Shown here piece by piece: positions 20,609 through 49,696 of a stretch of DNA of 64,000 bases. Each line of letters begins with the position of its first letter. The first letter of the stretch is position 1. The stretch is from contig CM097884.1 in the NCBI GenBank assembly GCA_044892505.1, positions 66,154,001 to 66,218,000 on the forward strand, read 5' to 3'. This stretch comes from Schmidtea nova (Eukaryota). A program made the position numbers and the translations under genes. The notes beneath the pieces were generated by a model. It was not told the origin of the DNA and made no database searches. It saw only the letters and a program-made list of their open reading frames with translations.

Positions 20609-21489
20609 GTTATTTAATAAATTTTAGTATTTTCAATTTTAGTTTTTCTTGTTCAAATTTTTATAAGTCTTTAAAACTTTTGGTAACATANNNNNNNNNN
20701 NNNNNNNNNNNNNNNNNNNNNNNNNNNNNNNNNNNNNNNNNNNNNNNNNNNNNNNNNNNNNNNNNNNNNNNNNNNNNNNNNNNNNNNNNNNNNNNNNNNN
20801 NNNNNNNNNNNNNNNNNNNNNNNNNNNNNNNNNNNNNNNNNNNNNNNNNNNNNNNNNNNNNNNNNNNNNNNNNNNNNNNNNNNNNNNNNNNNNNNNNNNN
20901 NNNNNNNNNNNNNNNNNNNNNNNNNNNNNNNNNNNNNNNNTAACATGTCTTTGTTAAATTTCAGCTGTAATGTCGTTTTTTTAATGTACAAAGGGGGAAA
21001 CAATTTGCAGTAGGTATGTGCATCATACTTTTAATTACCTTTAGTTTGATACCAATATTATATGGTTTTAAAAGATTTTGAACCTTGGACCACATGAGGG
21101 TATGACCATCATACTCAACTTTCAATTACCTTTAGTTTTATATATATAAATATATATGGTTTGATAATTTTGATGGTTTAGCACCTTTCGATGGTCGAGA
21201 ACCCACCATACATCTTCGAGGGAACCACCATCATACTTGACTCGCAATTACCTTTTGAATGATATATATATTATAAGGTTTTAAAATTTTGAATCTTGGA
21301 CCCTTGGAGGGTATGACCTTGATACTTGTGATTGAATTACCTTTAGTTTGATATATAATTATATATATATATATAGTCTTTGAAATTTTGAAGGTTTTTG
21401 AACCCTTGAGGGTCTAACACCCATTATAAACCTTCAAAGGTATGATCATCACATGTACCCTTCAATTACAGTAGACAGAAGTGTGCACC

Positions 21490-22275
21490 ATGAGTCATCG
21501 CAGAACAAAGGAAATGACGTCATCGATGAGTCATCCATGACCCCCCCCGATGACTCATAAATGACGTCATCGATGACTCATAAATGACGTCATCGATGAC
21601 TCATCGATGACTCATCGATGACTCATCACATGACTCATCGATGACTCATCGATGACGTCATCGATGACTCATTTCAAATTTGAATTTTATGACGTCATCG
21701 ATGACTCATTTCAAATTCAAATTTTAAATTTAAATTCCCAAGGGTCCAATAAGGTCAGACCTTCAAACAAGGGTATCATTCGAAAGGTCTTTTAAAGGTC
21801 TATCCAATGGTCATACCCTCGAAGGTGTATGGAGGGTCCTTAACCTTCAAGGGGTCAAAAACCTTCAACCTTTTACAATCCTTATAATATACATATCAAA
21901 CAAAAGGTAATTGGGAGGTAAGTAAGATGGTCATACCCTCGAAGGTGTATGGAGGATCCTTAACCTTCAAGGGGTCAAAAACCTTCAACCTTTTACAATC
22001 CTTATAATATACATATCAAACAAAAGGTAATTGAAGGGTGCACACAATGGTCATACCTTCCAAGGTCTATGGTGGGTGCTCAACCTTCAAAGGGTACAAA
22101 ACAAAGATATAAAGGTAAGTACGGTTTTCTTAATGACTCATACTGATGAGTCATTGGGATGACTCATTAGTATGACTCATCAATATGACTCATCAGTATC
22201 ACTCATTGGTATGACTCATCAGTATGACTCATCAGTATGACTCATCAGTATGACTCATCAGTATGACTCATCAAT
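21490..22275. promoter_or_regulatory. AP-1 (TGAC/GTCA) and CRE (TGACGTCA) motif arrays within the TIR
   Basis: About 21 TGA(C/G)TCA and 5 TGACGTCA by eye, in an 11-bp-unit block (21490-21710) and a 13-bp-unit block (22130-22275). Function is inferred. Confidence 0.6.
21806..22092 (+). repeat. 120-bp tandem repeat (about 2.4 copies) within the TIR
   Basis: ATGGTCATACCCTCGAAGG...AAAAGGTAATTG recurs at a 120-bp period. Confidence 0.9.
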
Positions 22276-22367
22276 AAATATTAACAAAGACAATGCAATC
22301 CATGTGCAAAGAAACAAAGACAATGCAATCCATGTGCAACGAAACAGAGATAAATTGTGTGTGTGTT

Positions 22368-22545
22368 TAAGACAAATCACAGTACTCATTGAACGCGCGT
22401 GAAACGCGCGTTCTTCTTCCTTGTTTTATAAGACAAATCACAGTACTCATTGAACGCGCGTGAAACGCGCGTTCTTCTTCCTTGTTTTATAAGACAAATC
22501 ACAGTACTCATTGAACGCGCGTGAAACGCGCGTTCTTCTTCTTCC
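22368..22545 (+). repeat. 62-bp tandem repeat x3 with a GAACGCGCG-TGAAA-CGCGCGTTC hairpin
   Basis: Three near-identical units at the inner TIR edge, mirrored at 38474-38645. Confidence 0.92.
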
Positions 22546-22588
22546 CTTGTTGTTTAATATAATAATAATAATAATAATAATAATTTAT

Positions 22589-23206
22589 TTATTTATAAAT
22601 ATATTGTTGCGAACGTGTACAAAATTTGGATTCAAAATTATTACTACTAGGAATATTATTCATAGGAACATTATTTACAGGAATTTTATTCTTATTAATA
22701 TTCTCTAACCTTATCGATGTTGCCAATATCAAGATCATTATTAATATGAATAAACTTATGTAATGTAAAACTATCGATGTTTTTTCGCTTTCAACTGTTT
22801 GATTTTGGTATCTGACTTCATATTGTTTTTTAACAATTGTTTGATTCGTACATTTCAAACTTTCAACAATTTTCATCATTATTTTCAACATTATTTTTTC
22901 CATTTCTTTATTAATCAAATCATTTTTTGAAGGACATTGTAATTTTATTTTGCTAATTATTTTTTCAATATCATTATTATTAATCAAATTATTTTTTGAA
23001 GGACATTGATCACATTGTAATTTTATTTGATTGCATTCAGTGTTTGAGTAAACACATATTTCATTATAACTCGCACAAGTACTATCTTCTCTTCTAAACG
23101 GATGGGTTGATTGGCAAGCTTCTAAAGCCTGTTCTCCATCAGTATTTTGAACACACAATAAAAATACAAACATGGTTATAAGCAGTTTCATTTTAAATAA
23201 ATACAA
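22589..23206 (-). CDS. Type-I membrane glycoprotein with a Cys-rich N-terminal ectodomain
   Basis: Signal peptide MKLLITMFVFLLCVQNTDG, 6-Cys cluster, two NQT sequons, TM segment IVLHYISLFILIMILILAT, short tail. Confidence 0.75.
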   Translation of the reverse strand: MYLFKMKLLITMFVFLLCVQNTDGEQALEACQSTHPFRREDSTCASYNEICVYSNTECNQIKLQCDQCPSKNNLINNNDIEKIISKIKLQCPSKNDLINKEMEKIMLKIMMKIVESLKCTNQTIVKKQYEVRYQNQTVESEKTSIVLHYISLFILIMILILATSIRLENINKNKIPVNNVPMNNIPSSNNFESKFCTRSQQYIYK

Positions 23207-23256
23207 AATAAAATAAAAAACTAAATTTGTTCATAGTAAAATTTATTAAATAACAA

Positions 23257-23673
23257 TTAGGCGTATCGTGCATTATCAACTCTCCAAATTGGAGTTGTCA
23301 CTTCCTTTTTATCAACCTTGTATCCTTGAATGATTATCGTAACGAACCAGTGTTCTTGATCAATGAACTCGATTGTTTGATAAGCATTATGGAAACGAGT
23401 CTTCCTGTTATTGATATACATCGTTTCTTTACAAATTAAATTCACATTGATTTTTGAAAATACTCTATTTAGTGCGATAATATCCTCTTTATCAATAATA
23501 ATAGATAGACTATCATACAACGACTTTGTTAATTTTACGGGATAAGATAAGCGAAACGGAATTTCTTCTACCAAGAAATAGATTCGGCTATCATAATACA
23601 TCTGGACTGGTTTCACCTCAGTCGGGAATAATCTTTCTTCGCTGACATCATAACCTCGTTTTCGTGAATCCAT
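23257..23673 (-). CDS. Conserved Polinton accessory protein of unknown function (138 aa from MDSRKR)
   Basis: Homology to the decayed paralogue at 20200-20608 starts at this Met. Confidence 0.7.
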   Translation of the reverse strand: MDSRKRGYDVSEERLFPTEVKPVQMYYDSRIYFLVEEIPFRLSYPVKLTKSLYDSLSIIIDKEDIIALNRVFSKINVNLICKETMYINNRKTRFHNAYQTIEFIDQEHWFVTIIIQGYKVDKKEVTTPIWRVDNARYA

Positions 23674-24215
23674 TTTTATAAATTGTGACAAATTTGTAGA
23701 AATGACTTTGTATTTATAGTGAGTACTGGATGCCTTTGTCCAATCACAATCATGCATTTGTATTGCACACGTTATACATGTCTTTGTTGTAAGTGTGTGT
23801 GTGTTGTATATGTTCAAGTAATAAGCTTTTGCATATAAAAACCATAACAAAAGATGTACTGATAGTAAGGGTCTGTAAGTGGATAAAATATTTATTTATA
23901 TCACAATAATTTATTTTACAATAATTTTTTTATAAAAAATACTATTTTTAACCTTGGTAAATAAAAAGTTTAATAATTACTCAAAGTTAAAATAATTAAT
24001 TAAATTCATAATAATAATTTAAAGTTAAATAAAAAATTATTAATAACTATTACTAAAAACTATTAAAAAACTAAAACTATTTCTTAAAAACTGTTACTTA
24101 AAAAACTAAAAAACTAATACTAAAAAACTAATAAAAACTAAAACTGAAACTAAAAACATTTATTAATATGAAAAACCTAAAAAATCACTGTTTACAAATA
24201 CACACAAATTGATAA

Positions 24216-24765
24216 TCAATGTTCTTCAGGAACTCGGTGACATTCGTCACAATCTGGAGATTCGGGAGACTCCATCGGCTCATCGGATTCGATTGGATAT
24301 GGCCCATCTAGAGTTGGGCAATCAGAATGAGCCGGACAATCTGTAGAATCCATCGATTGATCCGGAGTTGAATTTGGCCATGGCTCTTTGATATCTTCTT
24401 CCTCAATTGTTTCCAGCTGCGAATCGAATTCCTTCAATGCGTTTCTGAGAACCCAAATGTGGTATTTTCGGATCCTCTCAACACAATGATCGCATTGATA
24501 AGCGCATAATATATGCTCAGCAATGACGGGCAAATCATTGTGGATATTGGATATATGATCCAAAATTATTTTATTGAGATCGATGCCGGTCAGCATTTGA
24601 ATCTTGTACGGCAGAATTTCTGGTGCCGTGTATGCCAAGGTAGGCATTAATTTCGGGAAGATTTCTTCGAGCTTGCCCAGGACCACATTCATCAGTTTTC
24701 CTGAAAAAAGAAATAATATTAAAATTGAAAAAAGATTAATTAAAATCTTTACCATTTTTATTCAT
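24216..24765 (-). CDS. Accessory protein with a His/Cys cluster and acidic Pro-rich tail; 52-bp intron 24701-24752
   Basis: MNKNG|GT...CAG|GKLMNVVL splice is in frame; HILCAYQCDHC and CDECH motifs; paralogues at 19419 and 57551 share the acceptor. Confidence 0.75.
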
Positions 24766-24959
24766 ATTTTCTTCTAAGCACATTTTTAATTCTAAATTAT
24801 GAGAAAATGTTCTTAGTATATATACGATAGAAACACACATCATGTACGAAATGAACAACTTTAAACCAATAAGAATCAAGCATGCACAACATGTCTTTAT
24901 TCTATCGATACACACTCGACCAATCAGAATCGTGCATTTCCATTGCATGAATATTGCAG

Positions 24960-33456: not shown

Positions 33457-36400
33457 TTGATAAATTTAGGTAAATTATACAGTTCATATTGTAATAGTAC
33501 TTTACATAATGACTGTCACAGTCTTATGGAAAAGTATTATTATTACAAATATAATAGTATTTTTTACCTTATTTGCCCTACATGCAAAACTTTACAAACA
33601 AGCACATACATCGAATTCTACAATACACATAGAAACCATTTAACACAATTCAATGGTTCTAAAAAGAATTTATTTAATTCAATTTTCGCGAAAAACATTC
33701 AACAAAATAGTAATAAGCAAAATAATGTGGACAGTGTTCCCAAATTATTAAAAAGTAATGTGGACTGCGTTCCCAAACAAGTAATTATTAATGTGGACTC
33801 TGTCCCAACCTCTTGCAATGTGGACTGTGTTCCCAACCAAATAAACAATAATGTGGAATGTGTTCCCAATTTATTAAAAAGAACAAATACAGAAATAGTA
33901 TGTGAAACACCAAATAAAATAGGTAAATTTGAGGTTATTGATATAAGTGACGATGATGACGATGTGGTTGTTATTTCGTCAGATGAAGAGGAAATAGACC
34001 CTATAGTTTTAAACTGTTACTCTGTTAAGCAAATAGGTTTAGGGTTAATATCTGTTGATTCTGATCTCAATAATTCGCACATCATCGTTAAGATGGATGT
34101 TGCACATTTAAATTTAAATAATCTTTCTGTTCCATCTCTTTTACTAGAAAAATTAACATCGATTATTTCTGCCATGAAATCTGTTAAGATCCAATTTTGT
34201 ATAAAGGTTGAAATGATGAAAGACGATGAATACCAGTCTTTTGTCATTTCAAATTCAGCGCGTGTATGGACGACTGATTTCATTGATGAGGGCGTTACAC
34301 ATCTCAACGAAAAAATTATCCAAATGAACGAGAAGGGTTCAAATTGGAAATTAAATAAAATAGAATATATTAGTTTTGTAATAACGAAATACTCAGAAAT
34401 TACCAGATTAAGAGGTAAAAAATTTCTTTCAACACCGAAATCTTTACTTAATAAGGATTGCATTATCAATGTCAATAACACCGACAATCTTTGCTTCCTT
34501 TATAGTGTCTTGTCTGTTAAAAATTATAATCAGGTTGATGATGAAATTCGACAATTACCAACAACTTATAACTTGACATCACTTCGCTTTGATATAAATG
34601 ATATGCCAATGAAGCTAAGTAACATTAGCAGATTTGAATTATCAAACCCCGGTTATGCAATTAATGTATTATCGTATGACGAAAATGCGTTAGTTGACTT
34701 GACTAATAAAAGTGAAGTGATGAAACATCCATTCATCGATATTATCTATAAAAGTAAAGTAGTGGGGGGCACTGTCATAAACCTACTTTTAATTGAAAAT
34801 AAAAAAGAATTTCATTACGCAGGAATATATAACATCGACAAATTTTTAAATTGTAAAACTTCGGCGATAACCCCAGTGAGAATTTATAATAAATGGTGTC
34901 CTAGGTGCTTGCATGGCTTCCGTAATTCAGATACATTCAAGAGACATCGTGGTCTTTGTGATGCCAACCAAATAGGCACAACTTTGTATACACTTCCTAA
35001 TAATAAATTTTTACGTTTTAGCGACTGGACGAAGACAGTGACCCCTCCTTTTGTAATTTATGCCGATTTTGAGGCAATTTTACCTCGCGACTCGAAATAT
35101 TACCAAAAACATTTGCCCATTTCTGCGGGTTTATTACTTATTAATAATTTCACTGGGGTTAAATTATATAAATCCTTCTATGGCCTTGATTGCGTTGCCA
35201 AATTCCTGCAAGAAATTGAAAATATAAGTCGAAAAATTGTAACGCCCTATTATTTCGCAAATAAAAATAAGCAAATAATATTAACCTACGAAGACATGCA
35301 ACATTTTTCTTATGCAACACACTGCTACTTGTGTGAAAATATTTTAGTAAATCCTGTTAAAGACCACGATCACTTTACAGGTGCTTACCTAGGAGCAGCA
35401 TGCAACGAATGTAATATAAATAGGCAAATTCGACACACTTTGCCGATAGTTTTTCATAATCTACGGGGATATGATTTACATCATATCCTCAAATTCGGAC
35501 TTTCTAAATACGAATCGTGGAACATTAGCTGTGTTCCTGTCACCAGTGAGAAGTTTCTCAGTCTTTTTGCGAGAATCGGATCACTCACAGTGAAGTTTAT
35601 CGATTCGTATCAATTTGCCAGCGAATCTCTAAATAACTTAGTAAAAACTCTAACATCTTTTCCTCTTACTTCTTCGGAATTTACCGGGACTATTATCACC
35701 AGTAAGGGAATTTTTCCATATGATGTTGCTACATCTTTATCTGTCTTGAGGTCGATCACTGAATTGCCGCCGATTTGGGAAGGTGTCGAAATTGCTGATT
35801 ATGAAAAGGCAAAAGAAATATGGAGAGAAAATTCGTGTACCTCATTATTTGATTATATGATGGTTTACATGAAACTCGACATATTTCTTTTGGCTGATTA
35901 TTTTCAACAATTTCGTGCAAAGAGTATAGCTCATAATAAACTTGAGCCGTTGAATTTTTTGGGTATACCAGGTATGAGCTGGTGTTCTGCATTAATGACT
36001 TTGGAATCTCCTATCGAGCTTTTGCAAGATATGGAGATGTACAACTTTTTTGAGGGTGGAATCAGGGGCGGCCTCACTTTCGTTAATAAACATCATGTTA
36101 AATCAGGCCCAGATACAGAGTTGCTGTATATAGATATTAATAATCTGTATGGCTGGGCTCTTTCACAAAACTTACCGGACGGGGACTTTGTTTGGGTCAC
36201 GGATGACCACTTGCTTCATGACATCTTGTTGGAGTGCACTACGGTTGATTTATGTTCACTTAACTATGGTTATACCATAGAAGTGGATTTAGAGATACCG
36301 GCATCTATTCACGACTTACTGGATGATTTACCAGTAGCTGCTGAAAAGATGTGTGTGCCAGGTTCGAAGGTGCATAAGTTGCTTTTGACGCACATGCCTA

Positions 36401-37518
36401 AGAAAAACTATGTGCTTCATTGGCGACTTTTGCAGATGTTTCTGAGGTTAGGTGTTGTAGTGACCAAAATACATCGAGCTATTAAATACCATCAAAGTAG
36501 GCTTTTTAAGAAATACGTTGATACAAATACTGCTTTGAGAGCTTCTTCCACCACGAAACTCGACAAAAATTATTTTAAGTTATTAAATAACAGTCTCTAC
36601 GGTAAAACCGTAGAGAATCTGAAAAAACGTATAAATTTAAGACTGTGCAATTCGGCACGTAAATTAATAACATATAGCAGTAGCCCGTATTTTAGGAAAT
36701 CAACGAAAATTGACCATAATCTTATATCAGTGCTTTTGAGGAAGGAGTCTGTGTGTTTAGATAGGCCAAGTTATATAGGACAGACGGTCTTGGACTTGTC
36801 TAAACTAAGAATGTATGAACTACAATATATAGAGTTAGAGAAATATAGGAAAGAGTTTAATTGTAAGATTAATATTGCAGCAGGAGACACAGACTCCTTT
36901 TTTCTTGAAATTGTTAATTGTAGGCTTTCTGTTCTTTTGCCCGCTATGGTGAGGGATCAACTTTTAGATACTTCGAACTATGACCCGAGCCATCCCTTAT
37001 TTTCGCGTAATTTGGATTCTGTTATAGGAAAGTTTAAGGACGAAAATAAGGGCTTCAAATATGAAGAGTGGGTTTTTCTTCGGCCTAAATGCTATAGTTT
37101 ACTTGGCGACGAGGAGTGTTTAAAAGCCAAGGGCATATGTTTGGCTACTGCGGGACTTAACCATTCGCATTACCTAGACTGTTACACAACAAGTAAAATA
37201 TATAAAGTCCCGCAGTTTCGTATAGTCTCAAAAAATCATCAGGTTTATAGTGTCAAAAATACAAAAACGGCACTCAATTGCAACGACGACAAACGCAATT
37301 GGGTGTCGAAAAACAAAAGTTTTGCATATGGGCACTATAGGGTAGAAAATACTATTATAGGTTATGATGAAACAATTACCCCAGCCGAACCTGATGGATT
37401 TGATGATGAGGAGTTCGATGATGGCGAAACGGCTGAATCGCGCAGACTCCACGAATACCTGGTGAGGATGGAGCAGCAATTGCGTGATCAGCCATCTACA
37501 TCCACCGGTATATATTGA
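33457..37518 (+). CDS. Protein-primed family B DNA polymerase (pPolB) with an inserted endonuclease-VII-like Zn/HNH domain; true 5' end uncertain
   Basis: YADFE (ExoI), CYLC...KDHDHFTG..LGAAC..CN, FHNLRGYD, FIDSY, KGIFPY, YIDINNLYG, KLLNNSLYGK, GDTDS, FLRPKCY. Confidence 0.97.
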   Translation: MINLGKLYSSYCNSTLHNDCHSLMEKYYYYKYNSIFYLICPTCKTLQTSTYIEFYNTHRNHLTQFNGSKKNLFNSIFAKNIQQNSNKQNNVDSVPKLLKSNVDCVPKQVIINVDSVPTSCNVDCVPNQINNNVECVPNLLKRTNTEIVCETPNKIGKFEVIDISDDDDDVVVISSDEEEIDPIVLNCYSVKQIGLGLISVDSDLNNSHIIVKMDVAHLNLNNLSVPSLLLEKLTSIISAMKSVKIQFCIKVEMMKDDEYQSFVISNSARVWTTDFIDEGVTHLNEKIIQMNEKGSNWKLNKIEYISFVITKYSEITRLRGKKFLSTPKSLLNKDCIINVNNTDNLCFLYSVLSVKNYNQVDDEIRQLPTTYNLTSLRFDINDMPMKLSNISRFELSNPGYAINVLSYDENALVDLTNKSEVMKHPFIDIIYKSKVVGGTVINLLLIENKKEFHYAGIYNIDKFLNCKTSAITPVRIYNKWCPRCLHGFRNSDTFKRHRGLCDANQIGTTLYTLPNNKFLRFSDWTKTVTPPFVIYADFEAILPRDSKYYQKHLPISAGLLLINNFTGVKLYKSFYGLDCVAKFLQEIENISRKIVTPYYFANKNKQIILTYEDMQHFSYATHCYLCENILVNPVKDHDHFTGAYLGAACNECNINRQIRHTLPIVFHNLRGYDLHHILKFGLSKYESWNISCVPVTSEKFLSLFARIGSLTVKFIDSYQFASESLNNLVKTLTSFPLTSSEFTGTIITSKGIFPYDVATSLSVLRSITELPPIWEGVEIADYEKAKEIWRENSCTSLFDYMMVYMKLDIFLLADYFQQFRAKSIAHNKLEPLNFLGIPGMSWCSALMTLESPIELLQDMEMYNFFEGGIRGGLTFVNKHHVKSGPDTELLYIDINNLYGWALSQNLPDGDFVWVTDDHLLHDILLECTTVDLCSLNYGYTIEVDLEIPASIHDLLDDLPVAAEKMCVPGSKVHKLLLTHMPKKNYVLHWRLLQMFLRLGVVVTKIHRAIKYHQSRLFKKYVDTNTALRASSTTKLDKNYFKLLNNSLYGKTVENLKKRINLRLCNSARKLITYSSSPYFRKSTKIDHNLISVLLRKESVCLDRPSYIGQTVLDLSKLRMYELQYIELEKYRKEFNCKINIAAGDTDSFFLEIVNCRLSVLLPAMVRDQLLDTSNYDPSHPLFSRNLDSVIGKFKDENKGFKYEEWVFLRPKCYSLLGDEECLKAKGICLATAGLNHSHYLDCYTTSKIYKVPQFRIVSKNHQVYSVKNTKTALNCNDDKRNWVSKNKSFAYGHYRVENTIIGYDETITPAEPDGFDDEEFDDGETAESRRLHEYLVRMEQQLRDQPSTSTGIY

Positions 37519-37811
37519 GGTAAATTTATTTATTATTTTATTCATTATTATTATTGTTATTATTATAGACTATACGCCAATAGGAAAAAGAAGAAAAATA
37601 TTAAGAAGAATATTGCTGATTTTTACTATGAACAAAGCTTTATTTGGAATAAATTGAATGGAAATAAATTTTTTAATTTAAAATAATTGTTGTTTTTTCC
37701 CTATTGGGTTATATTTTTTAAATATTTGTTGAATTTTATTTTTATAAGTTTTTATTATTTTTGTTAATATTATATTTTTTCTATGTCTTATATTATTTAT
37801 ATTATTATTAA

Positions 37812-37843
<32 letters not shown>

Positions 37844-38473
37844 TTTTTCAAAGTTNNNNNNNNNNNNNNNNNNNNNNNNNNNNNNNNNNNNNNNNNNNNN
37901 NNNNNNNNNNNNNNNNNNNNNNNNNNNNNNNNNNNNNNNNNNNNNNNNNNNNNNNNNNNNNNNNNNNNNNNNNNNNNNNNNNNNNNNNNNNNNNNNNNNN
38001 NNNNNNNNNNNNNNNNTTTTNNNNNNNNNNNNNNNNNNNNNNNNNNNNNNNNNNNNNNNNNNNNNNNNNNNNNNNNNNNNNNNNNNNNNNNNNNNNNNNN
38101 NNNNNNNNNNNNNNNNNNNNNNNNNNNNNNNNNNNNNNNNNNNNNNNNNNNNNNNNNNNNNNNNNNNNNNNNNNNNNNNNNNNNNNNNNNNNNNNNNNNN
38201 NNNNNNNNNNNNNNNNNNNNNNNNNNNNNNNNNNNNNNNNNNNNNNNNNNNNNNNNNNNNNNNNNNNNNNNNNNNNNNNNNNNNNNNNNNNNNNNNNNNN
38301 NNNNNNNNNNNNNNNNNNNNNNNNNNNNNNNNNNNNNNNNNNNNNNNNNNNNNNNNNNNNNNNNNNNNNNNNNNNNNNNNNNNNNNNNNNNNNNNNNNNN
38401 NNNNNNNNNNNNNNNNNNNNNNNNNNNNNNNNNNNNNNNNNNNNNNNNNNNNNNNNNNNNNNNNNNNNNNNNN

Positions 38474-39542
38474 AGAAGAACGCGCGTTTCACGCGCGTTC
38501 AATGAGTACTGTGATTTGTCTTATAAAACAAGGAAGAAGAACGCGCGTTTCACGCGCGTTCAATGAGTACTGTGATTTGTCTTATAAAACAAGGAAGAAG
38601 AACGCGCGTTTCACGCGCGTTCAATGAGTACTGTGATTTGTCTTAAACACACACACAATTTATCTCTGTTTCGTTGCACATGGATTGCATTGTCTTTGTT
38701 TCTTTGCACATGGATTGCATTGTCTTTGTTAATATTTATTGATGAGTCATACTGATGAGTCATACTGATGAGTCATACTGATGAGTCATACTGATGAGTC
38801 ATACCAATGAGTGATACTGATGAGTCATATTGATGAGTCATACTAATGAGTCATCCCAATGACTCATCAGTATGAGTCATTAAGAAAACCGTACTTACCT
38901 TTATATCCTTGTTTTGTACCCTTTGAAGGTTGAGCACCCACCATAGACCTTGGAAGGTATGACCATTGTGTGCACCCTTCAATTACCTTTTGTTTGATAT
39001 GTATATTATAAGGATTGTAAAAGGTTGAAGGTTTTTGACCCCTTGAAGGTTAAGGATCCTCCATACACCTTCGAGGGTATGACCATCTTACTTACCTCCC
39101 AATTACCTTTTGTTTGATATGTATATTATAAGGATTGTAAAAGGTTGAAGGTTTTTGACCCCTTGAAGGTTAAGGACCCTCCATACACCTTCGAGGGTAT
39201 GACCATTGGATAGACCTTTAAAAGACCTTTCGAATGATACCCTTGTTTGAAGGTCTGACCTTATTGGACCCTTGGGAATTTAAATTTAAAATTTGAATTT
39301 GAAATGAGTCATCGATGACGTCATAAAATTCAAATTTGAAATGAGTCATCGATGACGTCATCGATGAGTCATCGATGAGTCATGTGATGAGTCATCGATG
39401 AGTCATCGATGAGTCATCGATGACGTCATTTATGAGTCATCGATGACGTCATTTATGAGTCATCGGGGGGGTCATGGATGACTCATCGATGACGTCATTT
39501 CCTTTGTTCTGCGATGACTCATGGTGCACACTTCTGTCTACT
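38474..39542 (-). repeat. Right TIR
   Basis: Reverse complement of the left TIR; inner edge abuts an N gap. Confidence 0.97.
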
Positions 39543-40862
39543 AATTACCTTTCGAATAACTTGTAAGGTTTGAAAAAATTCGAAGGTTTTTAACCCATTG
39601 AGGGTTCATCACAAACCTTAGACTTTCAAGGGTATGACCATCGCACCTCTCGAAGACCTTTCGAATGATACCCTTGTTTGAAGGCTGACCTTTGGAAATT
39701 AATATTTGAAATTTGAATTTGAAATGAGTCATTGATGACGTCATAAAATTCAAAATTGAATTGTCAAAATTAATACATGCCGTCATCACGATAAGTCATC
39801 GATAACGTCATAAACATTTTCTACGTCCGAGAATGACGTCATTTCCTTTGTTCGGCGATGGCTCATACTCCACATAACTTTCTACTTATAGTACACACAA
39901 ACACAGCACACAATGAATAATGCATGTAAACTTTAAAAATTATCATCTTTTATACTATTAAGTTATAATAATTTTATTTAATTTTAAAACAGAATTAGGG
40001 GTAAATTTTTTGAGTATTTCATAAGGAAGCGATTGAAGAAATGAATAAATAATGCCGTAAAATTTATTTTTAATGTATATAAATTTAAAATTTCATATAT
40101 TTCCGAAATTTCTTTTGGTAAAACTTTTCCGATTCCAGAAGCCAAGGATATAATACCGCCATAATATTTTCAATTTATGAAAAATTAAGTATTCATACAT
40201 AGCAATTTAAATACTTCTTAAGTTTCAGACAATGTTGGACAATAAGATTTGACAATCGTTGAATTAAAAAATTTTAATTATAAATTTTAATTGATCAAAA
40301 TGTTGAAAATGTAATATTATGATGAAATTACCGAAATCGATCAAAAAAGAAAAGTCAATATTATGGAAAATGGCGAAAACTACTTCAATTTTAGAAGATT
40401 TCTTGGAATATCGAAAAAAATATTTCAGAGATTATTTTTGTTAAAAAATGATTTTAACTTTTAATTTAAATAATTCCAAAAACATCTTAAAAATCATAGT
40501 TTCTTACAAAGTTATTAAAAGAAAAATTAAATTGTTGAAGATTAATAACCTCTCAAAGCTTGTATTGTGATCTCATAACATTATGAGATCAAAATATAAG
40601 CCTTTAAAGTTATTTTTATAAATTAACCTACCTGAAAGGCAAGAGAAATAAATAAACACTTACAATCATGATTAACAAAATCTTTATAGTGAAAACTATA
40701 AACAATTTGACACAAAATAATCCCGTGCTTTTAAATTTAAAAATGAAATTATAATTTTATTCAAAATATTTCTGATGTTTTCACGGCATTAACTATCTAA
40801 ACGACAAAACTATCAAAATCTGTAAGATTATGTTAAATATTTAGTTAGGTTGTAAAACATTT

Positions 40863-47318: not shown

Positions 47319-49696
47319 TTATAACTGCGATTGCTACAACTGTGGTATCTATTAAAAACGGAAATCGAAATCGAGTTATAAATCACAGTTTTACAGTTCA
47401 GTCTCATAATTCAAATGTCTCATGTTGTTTGGCGTCATCGAAATCTATTTGTTTATGTTTAGCAGACTGTGAAAATGATCTGAACCGTTTATTATCAGAA
47501 CAAGTGCAGCCTCTTATTCAGCTGTCAACCAGTTGTCTAATAAAACAAAATAATTGTGGAAAAGAAAATATTATTGTCGAAAATCCATATTCTTTTGTTG
47601 TACCGCAATTAGCTCACATATCCAACAGTTGCACATCATCCTCGCCGACATCATCGTCAGAAGAATCACTTCAAGGAGCATCAAAGGTTTTTATTGCGAC
47701 TCCCATTACAATGTCAACTGCTCTAAGTGAGATCTCAAACAACTCCAATTCTATCAAATATCATAATTCCGATCATGTCAAACACGATGGAATTCCAAAA
47801 GATCTACGACGAGAGCATTTAAAATTGGAAATATCTCCAAGTTTCTCGTCGGATAAGTTTGCTCACCAACACAAAATTTTACAAAATGTCTTTTTTCGCA
47901 CATCTACTCCGCTTTCTGAAGCTCATTGTAAAAAAGAAAAAGAGATTTCTTCATCGTTTCAGACGAACTCGTTGAATAAAGAATTAAAATTCAACTCGTT
48001 TAATAATAATTTGTGCTCTGCTGCTATTGGTCAGAATAAAATTAAAACAATTTCTAATACAAAAAACAATTGCAATAACAAACGAATTTATTTATCCCTC
48101 TACAATTTGACATGCCAAGACCTTTTTGATGTTGATGAAATTCAAACTATGAAAAACCCAACGAACATATTTTTCTCTCATTCCAAATCTTATGGATCTT
48201 TGAAGGAGACCGACATTGATTCAGGATTGGAAATATATCGTGAAAGATATAAGGAAACAGACTTGGATAAATATAGTAAAACGAATAAGAGATTTCAATT
48301 TAAAACATCAAGTCTTAATAATTTGTATCCATCGAAACCCGATCCAAGTCTTGTCATTTGTCCAGATCTCGATGAAAACATCCTAAACAAATGCACAAGC
48401 ACCGGATCTGTGTCCAAAAGCTGTAAGTCTTTATACTCACGGTTATGCGATAAAGCTGAAACACCGATACAAATGCGAGTAGCGAAATCGATTACAAAAT
48501 TAAACATTCCCAGTTGGTTGAGTTCAGTGGAATTCATAGAAAAAGACAGAACTAGTTCCAAAGTGAAAAGAGATTTAAATTTGTCTGATATTAAAATCAA
48601 ATCCAAGCCAAAAGTAAAAGGAATTGCTAAAACATTAAATGCAATTAATTCGTCACATAAATCTCGAGTCAACAATGAAAAAGTGAACGTATCTTTACCA
48701 AGTAAAAAATATTCCCACAGTATTCATAGACTTGAACCAATTGCTTGTTCAAAGGCCAGAAATATTCTGACTAATTGCCAAAGAGAGAAAGTCATTCAGT
48801 CGCGTAGTATTTCGGAAAATAATGTCAAATCGATTCAAACAAAACTAGAGGAATTGTCATTTGAATTTTTATCTCAATTTCCTAACTTGAAAAAGTCATT
48901 TATTAACATCAAAGAAAATTGGAAAAATTCAGAAAGAAAATCGAATAATATTTGTGCGAATATTACATGCTGTAAATTGATTTCTAAAACGAAAGATTCT
49001 GTGATTGGTTGCAGAGAATGCCAAACGGTTTATTGTTCTAACCGATGCCAGTCTGATGATCTTAGCAATCATTCTAAGAGTTGTCATCAAGAAATTCTTC
49101 AATATTGGCTCAGTTTTCTCATTAGTAATTTATCGAAAAATCAGATTTTTCTTTTGTCAGAAATATCGAAAATCGGTTTGGAAAATTTTGGAAAAGGTTT
49201 CGTGCTGTGGACAATCGAAAAAACGAAATCTCAGAATATATTTTCAAAATTTCTCAAATATTCTCTGGCATCAGATTCTAAAAGTTTTGGAATTGAAATA
49301 GATGGAAATAAAGTTATCAAATCGGAATTTTTATTCGTCCTTTCTTTGATAATTGATTCTAATAACAATCGCTTGACAGAGTCGAAGTATTTCTCAATCA
49401 ACGGCAATTTAATTCAATCAAAAACTGTTCGGATAATTGCGGGGGAAAATTTTTCCGTTAATAAACATCGAGAGAAACGACAGAATTTTTTCAATGAAAT
49501 TAACAAATTATTGTGTTATTTTAATGTTAACATTCAAGAAACTTATCCAGCTTTTTATTTTCATTTGATTGAATATGTGACAAACGGAATTTTGTTTTCC
49601 AATCAAAATGTTATTGTCAGTGATCCTGTTACCGGTTCTAAAGTTAAACTTATTATTATGCCTGATCAAGTTCCATTGCAGATTCCAATTGATTGA
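47319..49696 (+). CDS. Large terminal exon of a host apical junction molecule (AJM1/C9orf172/ajm-1)-like gene with a MYND-like zinc finger
   Basis: Acceptor TTTTTTACTTCATCTAG at 47318. C..C...YCS..CQ..D...H...C finger, then LSEISKIG....GKGFV, and C-terminal FF.EI...L....V.I...YP..Y..L.EYV....F......D..TG....IIM resembling the recalled AJM1 C-terminal domain. Confidence 0.7.

Follow-up and report, generated by a model that had tools for sequence, protein, structure and literature searches.

AP-1 and CRE site arrays in the terminal inverted repeats of a high-copy Polinton/Maverick element of Schmidtea nova

The stretch of DNA considered here ("the window") comprises 64,000 nucleotides of Schmidtea nova (assembly GCA_044892505.1, contig CM097884.1, positions 66,154,001–66,218,000, forward strand) and harbors a Polinton/Maverick element of a young, high-copy family designated family A (Table 1). 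Its length (18,073 bp) and terminal inverted repeats (TIRs, at least 1,069 bp) are within the criteria for this group, i.e., 13–25 kb, TIRs of 100–1500 bp, and target-site duplications (TSDs) of 5–8 bp; TSDs of 6 bp were also found in three of three other paired copies checked. With Polinton/Maverick elements and adintoviruses, as described in 10.1101/2023.08.22.554363 and PMC8502044, the window element shares the size, TIR length, 6-bp TSD, integrase, ATPase, protease, and capsid protein, along with a putative polymerase.

The TBP-like protein encoded by the element retains the YEPELFP stretch in its second repeat, the first one being shortened; its predicted model (pLDDT 94) matches TBP structures (E 2.5e-9), and a TBP-like gene is listed for related viruses in a figure legend of PMC8502044. 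For a 179-aa gene of the element, the atlas search gave no usable match. The 1330-aa putative polymerase had no polymerase match in Pfam or the PDB; its assignment follows the six exonuclease and polymerase motifs, the labels of which we take to be those of family B. The genes adjoining both TIRs are read towards the element ends. Several repeats are scattered over the coding part, e.g., 3.8 copies of a 26-bp repeat between the capsid and protease genes (30403–30502) and, upstream of the polymerase, 15 copies of a 43-bp repeat (32637–33321). A small repeat-coding frame, also upstream of the polymerase (32242–32526; 24–30-bp repeat), holds four of the five CC(A/T)6GG boxes of the window, presumably SRF-type, which may be coincidental to the peptide repeat.

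Table 1. Features of the Polinton/Maverick element and its insertion site (positions in the window)
Feature	Position	Strand	Remarks
Polinton/Maverick element, young high-copy family A	21470–39542		ends AGT...ACT
Target-site duplication AATTAC, 6 bp	21464–21469	+	second copy 39543–39548
Left terminal inverted repeat (minimum extent)	21470–22539	+	~1.07 kb
Distal bZIP array: 11 AP-1 9-mers and 5 CRE 10-mers	21490–21709	+	mostly 11/12-bp units, CG spacer
120-bp repeats between both arrays, without bZIP sites	21805–22101	+	
Inner AP-1 array, 13-bp unit repeated 11 times (10 perfect)	22133–22275	+	motif conserved, spacer variable
30-bp repeats with AACAAAG and 61-bp repeats with ACGCGCGT	22283–22541	+	
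Conserved 166-aa gene	23257–23757	-	
TBP-like protein, 155 aa	24960–25427	-	Pfam TBP 6e-15
A32-like packaging ATPase	25517–26140	+	Pfam Pox_A32
rve integrase with C-terminal chromodomain	26753–27797	+	Pfam rve 9.5e-09; two reading frames in the window copy
Double jelly-roll major capsid protein	29180–30400	+	model resembles the capsids of iridovirus, PBCV-1, and mavirus (best E 5e-14)
Adenovirus-type protease, partial open frame	30674–30919	+	Pfam Peptidase_C5 8.6e-06
Putative family B DNA polymerase, 1330 aa, EndoVII-like insert	33526–37518	+	pattern matches to three motifs each of exonuclease and polymerase type
Right terminal inverted repeat	38474–39542	-	mirror arrays 38740–38880 and 39304–39522
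Outer part of the older relative's TIR	39543–39886	-	continues ~21096–21469 and further left; bZIP sites: 3 perfect, 4 with one mismatch

The element came to lie in the TIR of an older Polinton, a relative, and is oriented opposite to it. The earlier note on this DNA, made from the sequence alone, supposed that it sits in a host gene; this is not supported, since the site lies inside the older TIR, and the 94 of 132 flanking open frames that were searched gave only Tc5/DDE transposase matches, revealing no host gene around the insertion (small exons could escape; the 38 frames left out were mostly Polinton remnants, low-complexity tracts or the reverse of a 661-aa frame). This 661-aa open frame (47711–49696) gave a weak match to a MYND finger (E 0.009). 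A target preference for older TIRs was considered as well and rejected in view of the varied flanks at 29 other ends. In the older TIR, the perfect sites are one AP-1 (39724) and two CRE (39735, 39833), and the one-mismatch sites are located at 39777, 39791, 39802, and 39858. At 29 other ends of the older subfamily, there are 2–7 AP-1 and 0–2 CRE sites, the inner array being found in none within 1.5 kb. The reading of 39720–39870 as carrying decayed versions thus needs a correction: this TIR belongs to a different, site-poor subfamily, so that its shortness comes from its ancestry, with decay in addition.

In the young element, a pattern count gives exactly 21 ATGA(C/G)TCAT 9-mers and 5 ATGACGTCAT 10-mers in the left TIR (21490–22275) and the same in the right one, bearing out the earlier eye count of about 21 and 5 per TIR; the 11-bp and 13-bp units noticed by eye were likewise recovered by Tandem Repeats Finder as the periods of two arrays (21514–21672 and 22133–22273). 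When the left TIR was dinucleotide-shuffled 1,000 times, the mean numbers were 0.03 (maximum 2) and 0.004 (maximum 1), respectively, so the enrichment against shuffled sequence, proposed as a check, is evident. The window contains 43 perfect AP-1 9-mers, 42 of them in the TIRs of the young element and one in the older TIR. The distal array spans 20–240 bp from the terminus, with the first site 20 bp from the end. Over 1,069 bp, the left and right TIRs differ by one 1-bp gap and ~1 mismatch (the latter from the alignment score); at its inner end, the right TIR runs into N. The word AACAAAG in the 30-bp TIR repeats is presumably Sox/TCF-like. The bZIP sites match the cores TGA(C/G)TCA and TGACGTCA exactly, with preferred flanks, as befits the canonical AP-1 and ATF/CREB palindromes for which they had been taken. 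The commonest context of the AP-1 site in A-type ends, GATGACTCATC (140 sites), agrees with the extended JunB/FosL2 motifs tabulated in PMC11240583.

The inner array allows the motif to be compared with its spacer. When the 13-bp units are placed in register and the eight fixed motif positions of each are scored against the majority, 1 of 88 motif cells is off the majority vs. 12 of 44 spacer cells (p 6e-6; this and the following p-values are too small, because tandem units are not independent); with each variant letter counted once, the figures are 1/24 and 7/12 (p 6e-4). Two diverged copies of the array have motif vs. spacer mismatches of 1/88 vs. 18/44 and 5/112 vs. 24/56, the latter copy giving p 0.06 on the once-only count. 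Among 30 young-family ends, the inner array is present in 25, with 6–13 units, and absent within 1.5 kb in five. A larger set of 78 A-type ends, mostly found by motif-bearing queries, includes 74 with at least two sites and one with none; the first site is usually 20 or 36 bp from the terminus. The sites persist across A subfamilies with polymerases ~64–76% identical to that of the window, so the conservation of the motifs across family copies, the lack of which the earlier note named as grounds for giving up its interpretation, was found. Overall, a motif-specific constraint on the arrays is supported by the sequence comparisons.

The reach of these sites is genome-wide. ATGASTCAT occurs 164,987 times in the whole genome vs. 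5,057 for the reversed control (~30-fold), and ~15,300 occurrences are expected from base composition; depending on which expectation is taken, the excess makes up 91–97% of the AP-1 9-mers. For ATGACGTCAT, the corresponding counts are 24,742 and 1,207. In a sample of 110 AP-1 sites (20 loci round the first 100 listed sites, three listed singletons being left out), 107 lie inside an A-type terminus, no farther than 2.6 kb from it; the pattern places 101 of them and visible termini the other six. Twenty evenly spaced 10-kb stretches contained three AP-1 9-mers (two in Polinton-matching DNA) vs. a genome mean of ~26; this sparse sample fits strong clustering, without by itself confirming the share of the TIRs. 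Family A is young and very large: all 40 ends scored are ~100% matches, and the TBP-like protein gave 19,235 first-look candidates, with 145 identical among the 150 scored copies. The Polinton load is very high. Of 200,000 bases sampled, 23,056 were covered by matches to six Polinton references; a Maverick expansion in planarians is reported in 10.64898/2025.12.11.693146.

Other Polinton families of this genome differ in the motif they carry. Family B, likewise young (copies 97–99% alike), is 87% identical to the window element in the ATPase, 65% in the capsid protein, 64% in the polymerase, and 58% in the TBP-like protein. Its nine ends out of nine are devoid of AP-1/CRE, each having 4–13 TTACGTAA. 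At the same position as the A array, after a C-run, lies a 19-unit array of ATTACGTAAT with an 11-bp period; this motif (genome-wide 23,718 vs. 5,143 for the reversed control) differs from CRE by one symmetric base-pair change. According to PMC10941009, ATTACGTAAT is the site bound by both NFIL3 (0.042 uM, on CATTACGTAATG) and C/EBP-beta (0.018 uM). Five recurring one-base variants of the family B array (42/53), mostly transitions, all retain bZIP-type half-sites.

Subfamily A2 (L159, L163, L164, L171) keeps the AP-1 array and has beside it arrays of TTTCGCGCCAAA/TTTCCCGCCAAA, which we take to be E2F sites; TTTCGCGCCAAA is found 30,145 times genome-wide vs. 57 for the reversed control. The capsid-side genes of A2 are ~90% identical to those of the window and its polymerase ~70%, which suggests module exchange; one B-type body has an E-type end together with an E-type polymerase. 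In family H, a ~48-bp unit occurs ~22 times close to either end (C1 481292–482400, mirror near 493787) and contains GTTGCYARGGTAAA, presumably a core of RFX X-box type that overlaps GTAAAYA, a forkhead-like word; the pattern of this type counts 11,278 genome-wide vs. 17 for the reversed control. A comparison of motif and spacer in the family H array is skewed by the anchor used and carries no weight here. No perfect bZIP array was present in family D (three of three copies) or family E (three ends seen). Since family D is young and abundant, the arrays are not required. A family D element (C2 58656322–58671078) is 14.8 kb long, with 3.9-kb TIRs each harboring a TBP-like and two other genes; its center gave matches to protease and polymerase only, and none to capsid, ATPase or integrase. 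In family E ends, 60–120-bp repeats carry CACGTG as well as TGATGCAA/TGACATAA words here and there, which might be E-box and composite bZIP sites, although the likeness is weak. In the polymerase tree, support is 71% for a group of the AP-1-bearing lineages and 95% for the pairing of B and H; the deep nodes are weak (45–71%), so no order of the motif changes is claimed. The TBP-like gene occurs in families A, B, and D whatever the array type. The idea of a two-part transcription hijack by this gene and the array, voiced in the earlier note, is therefore rejected: the same gene accompanies another motif in family B and no bZIP array in family D.

Any proteins reading the arrays are most likely to be those of the host. 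A PF00170 search of the host genome (150 of 194 candidates scored) gave at least 11 loci and no high-copy family; the bZIP genes include Jun-like, Fos-like, and NFIL3/PAR-like ones, along with ATF/CREB-like genes judged by eye, and the Fos gene is 92% identical to Fos-1 of Schmidtea mediterranea. No bZIP was recognised in the unmasked frames of the element (masked stretches, e.g., 37856–38473, could conceal a small gene). Host factors are thus the likeliest readers, since matching genes exist in the host and a bZIP is found neither in the element nor as a high-copy family. The terminal genes point towards the TIRs, hence the arrays are not proximal promoters. The AP-1/CRE arrays are probably bound by host Jun/Fos/ATF dimers and probably serve as a position-independent enhancer and/or a helper of a replication origin, similar to baculovirus homologous regions (hrs). 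Unit number would change by slippage or unequal exchange, and selection on the copying of the element would keep those units that bind a host activator. Bound dimers could open both ends at once and either act at a distance on internal promoters or help load the element polymerase at the termini. Families would differ in the host factor, i.e., AP-1/CRE, AP-1 with E2F, or NFIL3/PAR/C-EBP.

The trigger is a more tentative matter. Planarian fos-1 and jun-1 are described as wound-activated immediate early genes (PMC4716842), which makes wound induction a plausible, putative trigger for the AP-1 family, with the chances somewhat short of even. In a related planarian, Polintons are reported to be piRNA-silenced, de-silenced during differentiation (PMC8532177), and mostly situated in the B compartment (PMC8532177, PMC10558129), so most of the sites may be closed. 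A broader proposal, in which co-resident families split host cell states by swapping TIR arrays (AP-1/CRE for wound/stress, AP-1 with E2F for cycling stem cells, NFIL3/PAR/C-EBP, and possibly RFX/forkhead) and the ~30-fold AP-1 inflation rewires or titrates the wound response, is doubtful at present.

Other explanations of the arrays deserve consideration. They might be structural or neutral minisatellites without any protein reader, grown by slippage and forming hairpins in strand-displacement replication. Compared with shuffled sequence, the folding of the distal array, a long hairpin, is indeed much stronger (z -7.2), as is that of the family B array (z -7.2), and the palindromy of both could therefore be kept for structure; the AP-1/CRE pair amounts to a center indel that any palindrome tolerates, and the family B motif is one of 15 symmetric single-pair changes from CRE by our own count. 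The spread of 6 to 13 units among near-identical copies, the many other repeats of the TIRs, and the families D and E lacking arrays are compatible with this explanation, too. Still, hairpins fail to account for the inner 13-bp array, which folds weakly (z -1.9, centroid nearly unpaired) yet keeps its motif beside a changing spacer; the E2F-type array of A2 does not fold (z +0.7), and one and the same 9-mer recurs between different spacers and also singly, at a constant distance from the terminus. A purely structural or neutral origin is, for these reasons, improbable.

About the same credit, if anything slightly less, is given to the notion that the palindromic units are sites for a dimeric protein coded by the element itself (the polymerase/terminal-protein region, the integrase or another gene), with their likeness to host motifs being due to convergence or chance. 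Several genes of the element have no assigned function, and the TIR type appears to travel with the polymerase type more than with the capsid module, judging from A2 and from the B-type body with the E-type end. However, linkage alone accounts for this co-travel, because the polymerase gene adjoins the right TIR; both bZIP spacings occur within one array, the sister arrays match distinct canonical host classes, and a bZIP was recognised neither in the unmasked part of the element nor among high-copy families. The least probable of the explanations considered is that a host bZIP protein binds without activating genes or an origin, but opens chromatin for excision/integration, recruits repressors or is caught by a decoy blunting the stress response. 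The terminal genes pointing towards the TIRs agree with such a role, ~160,000 excess AP-1 9-mers make a large potential sink, and NFIL3-type factors can repress; known analogues, the baculovirus hrs, nevertheless activate, as described in PMC13513840.

These hrs are a close parallel to the preferred explanation, i.e., host dimers acting through the arrays. According to PMC13513840 (citing Landais et al. 2006), hrs function as enhancer and origin, their CRE/TRE count tracks enhancer strength, and recruitment of host bZIP proteins was proposed for them. Like the window arrays, hrs are tandem repeats with clustered CRE/TRE motifs in a dsDNA virus (PMC13513840), but theirs is a 30-bp imperfect palindrome in ~72-bp units, dispersed and acting with viral IE1 (as stated there). 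In the window, by contrast, the bZIP site itself is the 11–13-bp unit, the arrays are confined to both TIRs of an element that integrates and has no recognisable IE1-like gene, and sister families use different motif classes. The window arrays, with their short units and confinement to the TIRs, therefore work like an hr at most and are not hrs. Adenovirus ITRs carry sites for host factors, namely NFI, Oct-1, and ATF/CRE. As in the window element, these sites lie just inside the termini of a linear genome; the polymerase is of protein-primed type in adenovirus and putatively so in the element. However, adenovirus ITRs have few single sites, with the early genes read inwards, instead of arrays with terminal genes read outwards, so an adenovirus-type geometry is not supported for the element.

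Plant MITEs offer a parallel in the amplification of motifs. They are reported to amplify E2F and bZIP60 (TGACGTCA) motifs, 49% of the bZIP60 motifs in peach being of this origin (PMC5950925, citing Henaff et al. 2014); there, as with the Polinton, much of a genome's stock of a factor's motif comes from one family of DNA transposons. Unlike a MITE, the Polinton is an autonomous virus-like animal element with 26 sites per end, and the excess implies ~90–97% of the perfect AP-1 9-mers. The MITE E2F motifs are bound in vivo (PMC5950925), whereas binding to the Polinton arrays is a prediction.

Similar arrays were also sought in viral contigs and metagenomes. The AP-1 triple-array pattern gave five loci in three viral contigs, all of them Met-Thr-His-type or other coding repeats in non-Polinton viruses; in a giant-virus contig (L061/L063/L065), several paralogous genes start with Met-Thr-His repeats spelling tandem AP-1 sites. 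The TTACGTAA triple pattern gave nine loci, none with a match to the proteins of the element, and the only annotated one was a baculovirus, where TTACGTAA arrays are present at two hr-like loci of a 111-kb contig (L194, L198). Capsid, ATPase, and TBP-like queries revealed no relatives in the viral contigs. In metagenomes, 56 loci have the TBP-like gene, 39 of them also with another gene of the element; no dense array was seen in the 56, none of which clearly includes an end. A post-hoc pattern, AACAAAG next to ATGAC, gave 11 matches in 8 of these 56 loci and is weak.

Clusters of host-factor sites in viral repeats and the amplification of E2F or bZIP motifs by transposons are already known (see, e.g., PMC5950925). 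What is new is the density of the arrays, the constraint on motif over spacer, the fact that sister families differ in bZIP class at one and the same position, and a 30-fold increase in AP-1 sites in an animal that regenerates. In the titles and abstract openings searched (subscription journals and supplements lying outside), no description of arrays of bZIP or other factor sites in Polinton TIRs was found.

For the activation of endogenous Polintons, the arrays name candidate host factors, giving each family a different predicted trigger. In planarians, tissue-specific de-repression of transposons is tied to cell-type chromatin changes, with Polintons among the most affected (according to PMC8532177); family-specific arrays would add a cause on the side of the element to this phenomenon. 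If ~90–97% of the perfect AP-1 9-mers indeed stem from one transposon clade, motif analyses of regeneration enhancers would be affected, and the levels of free Jun/Fos may be affected as well.
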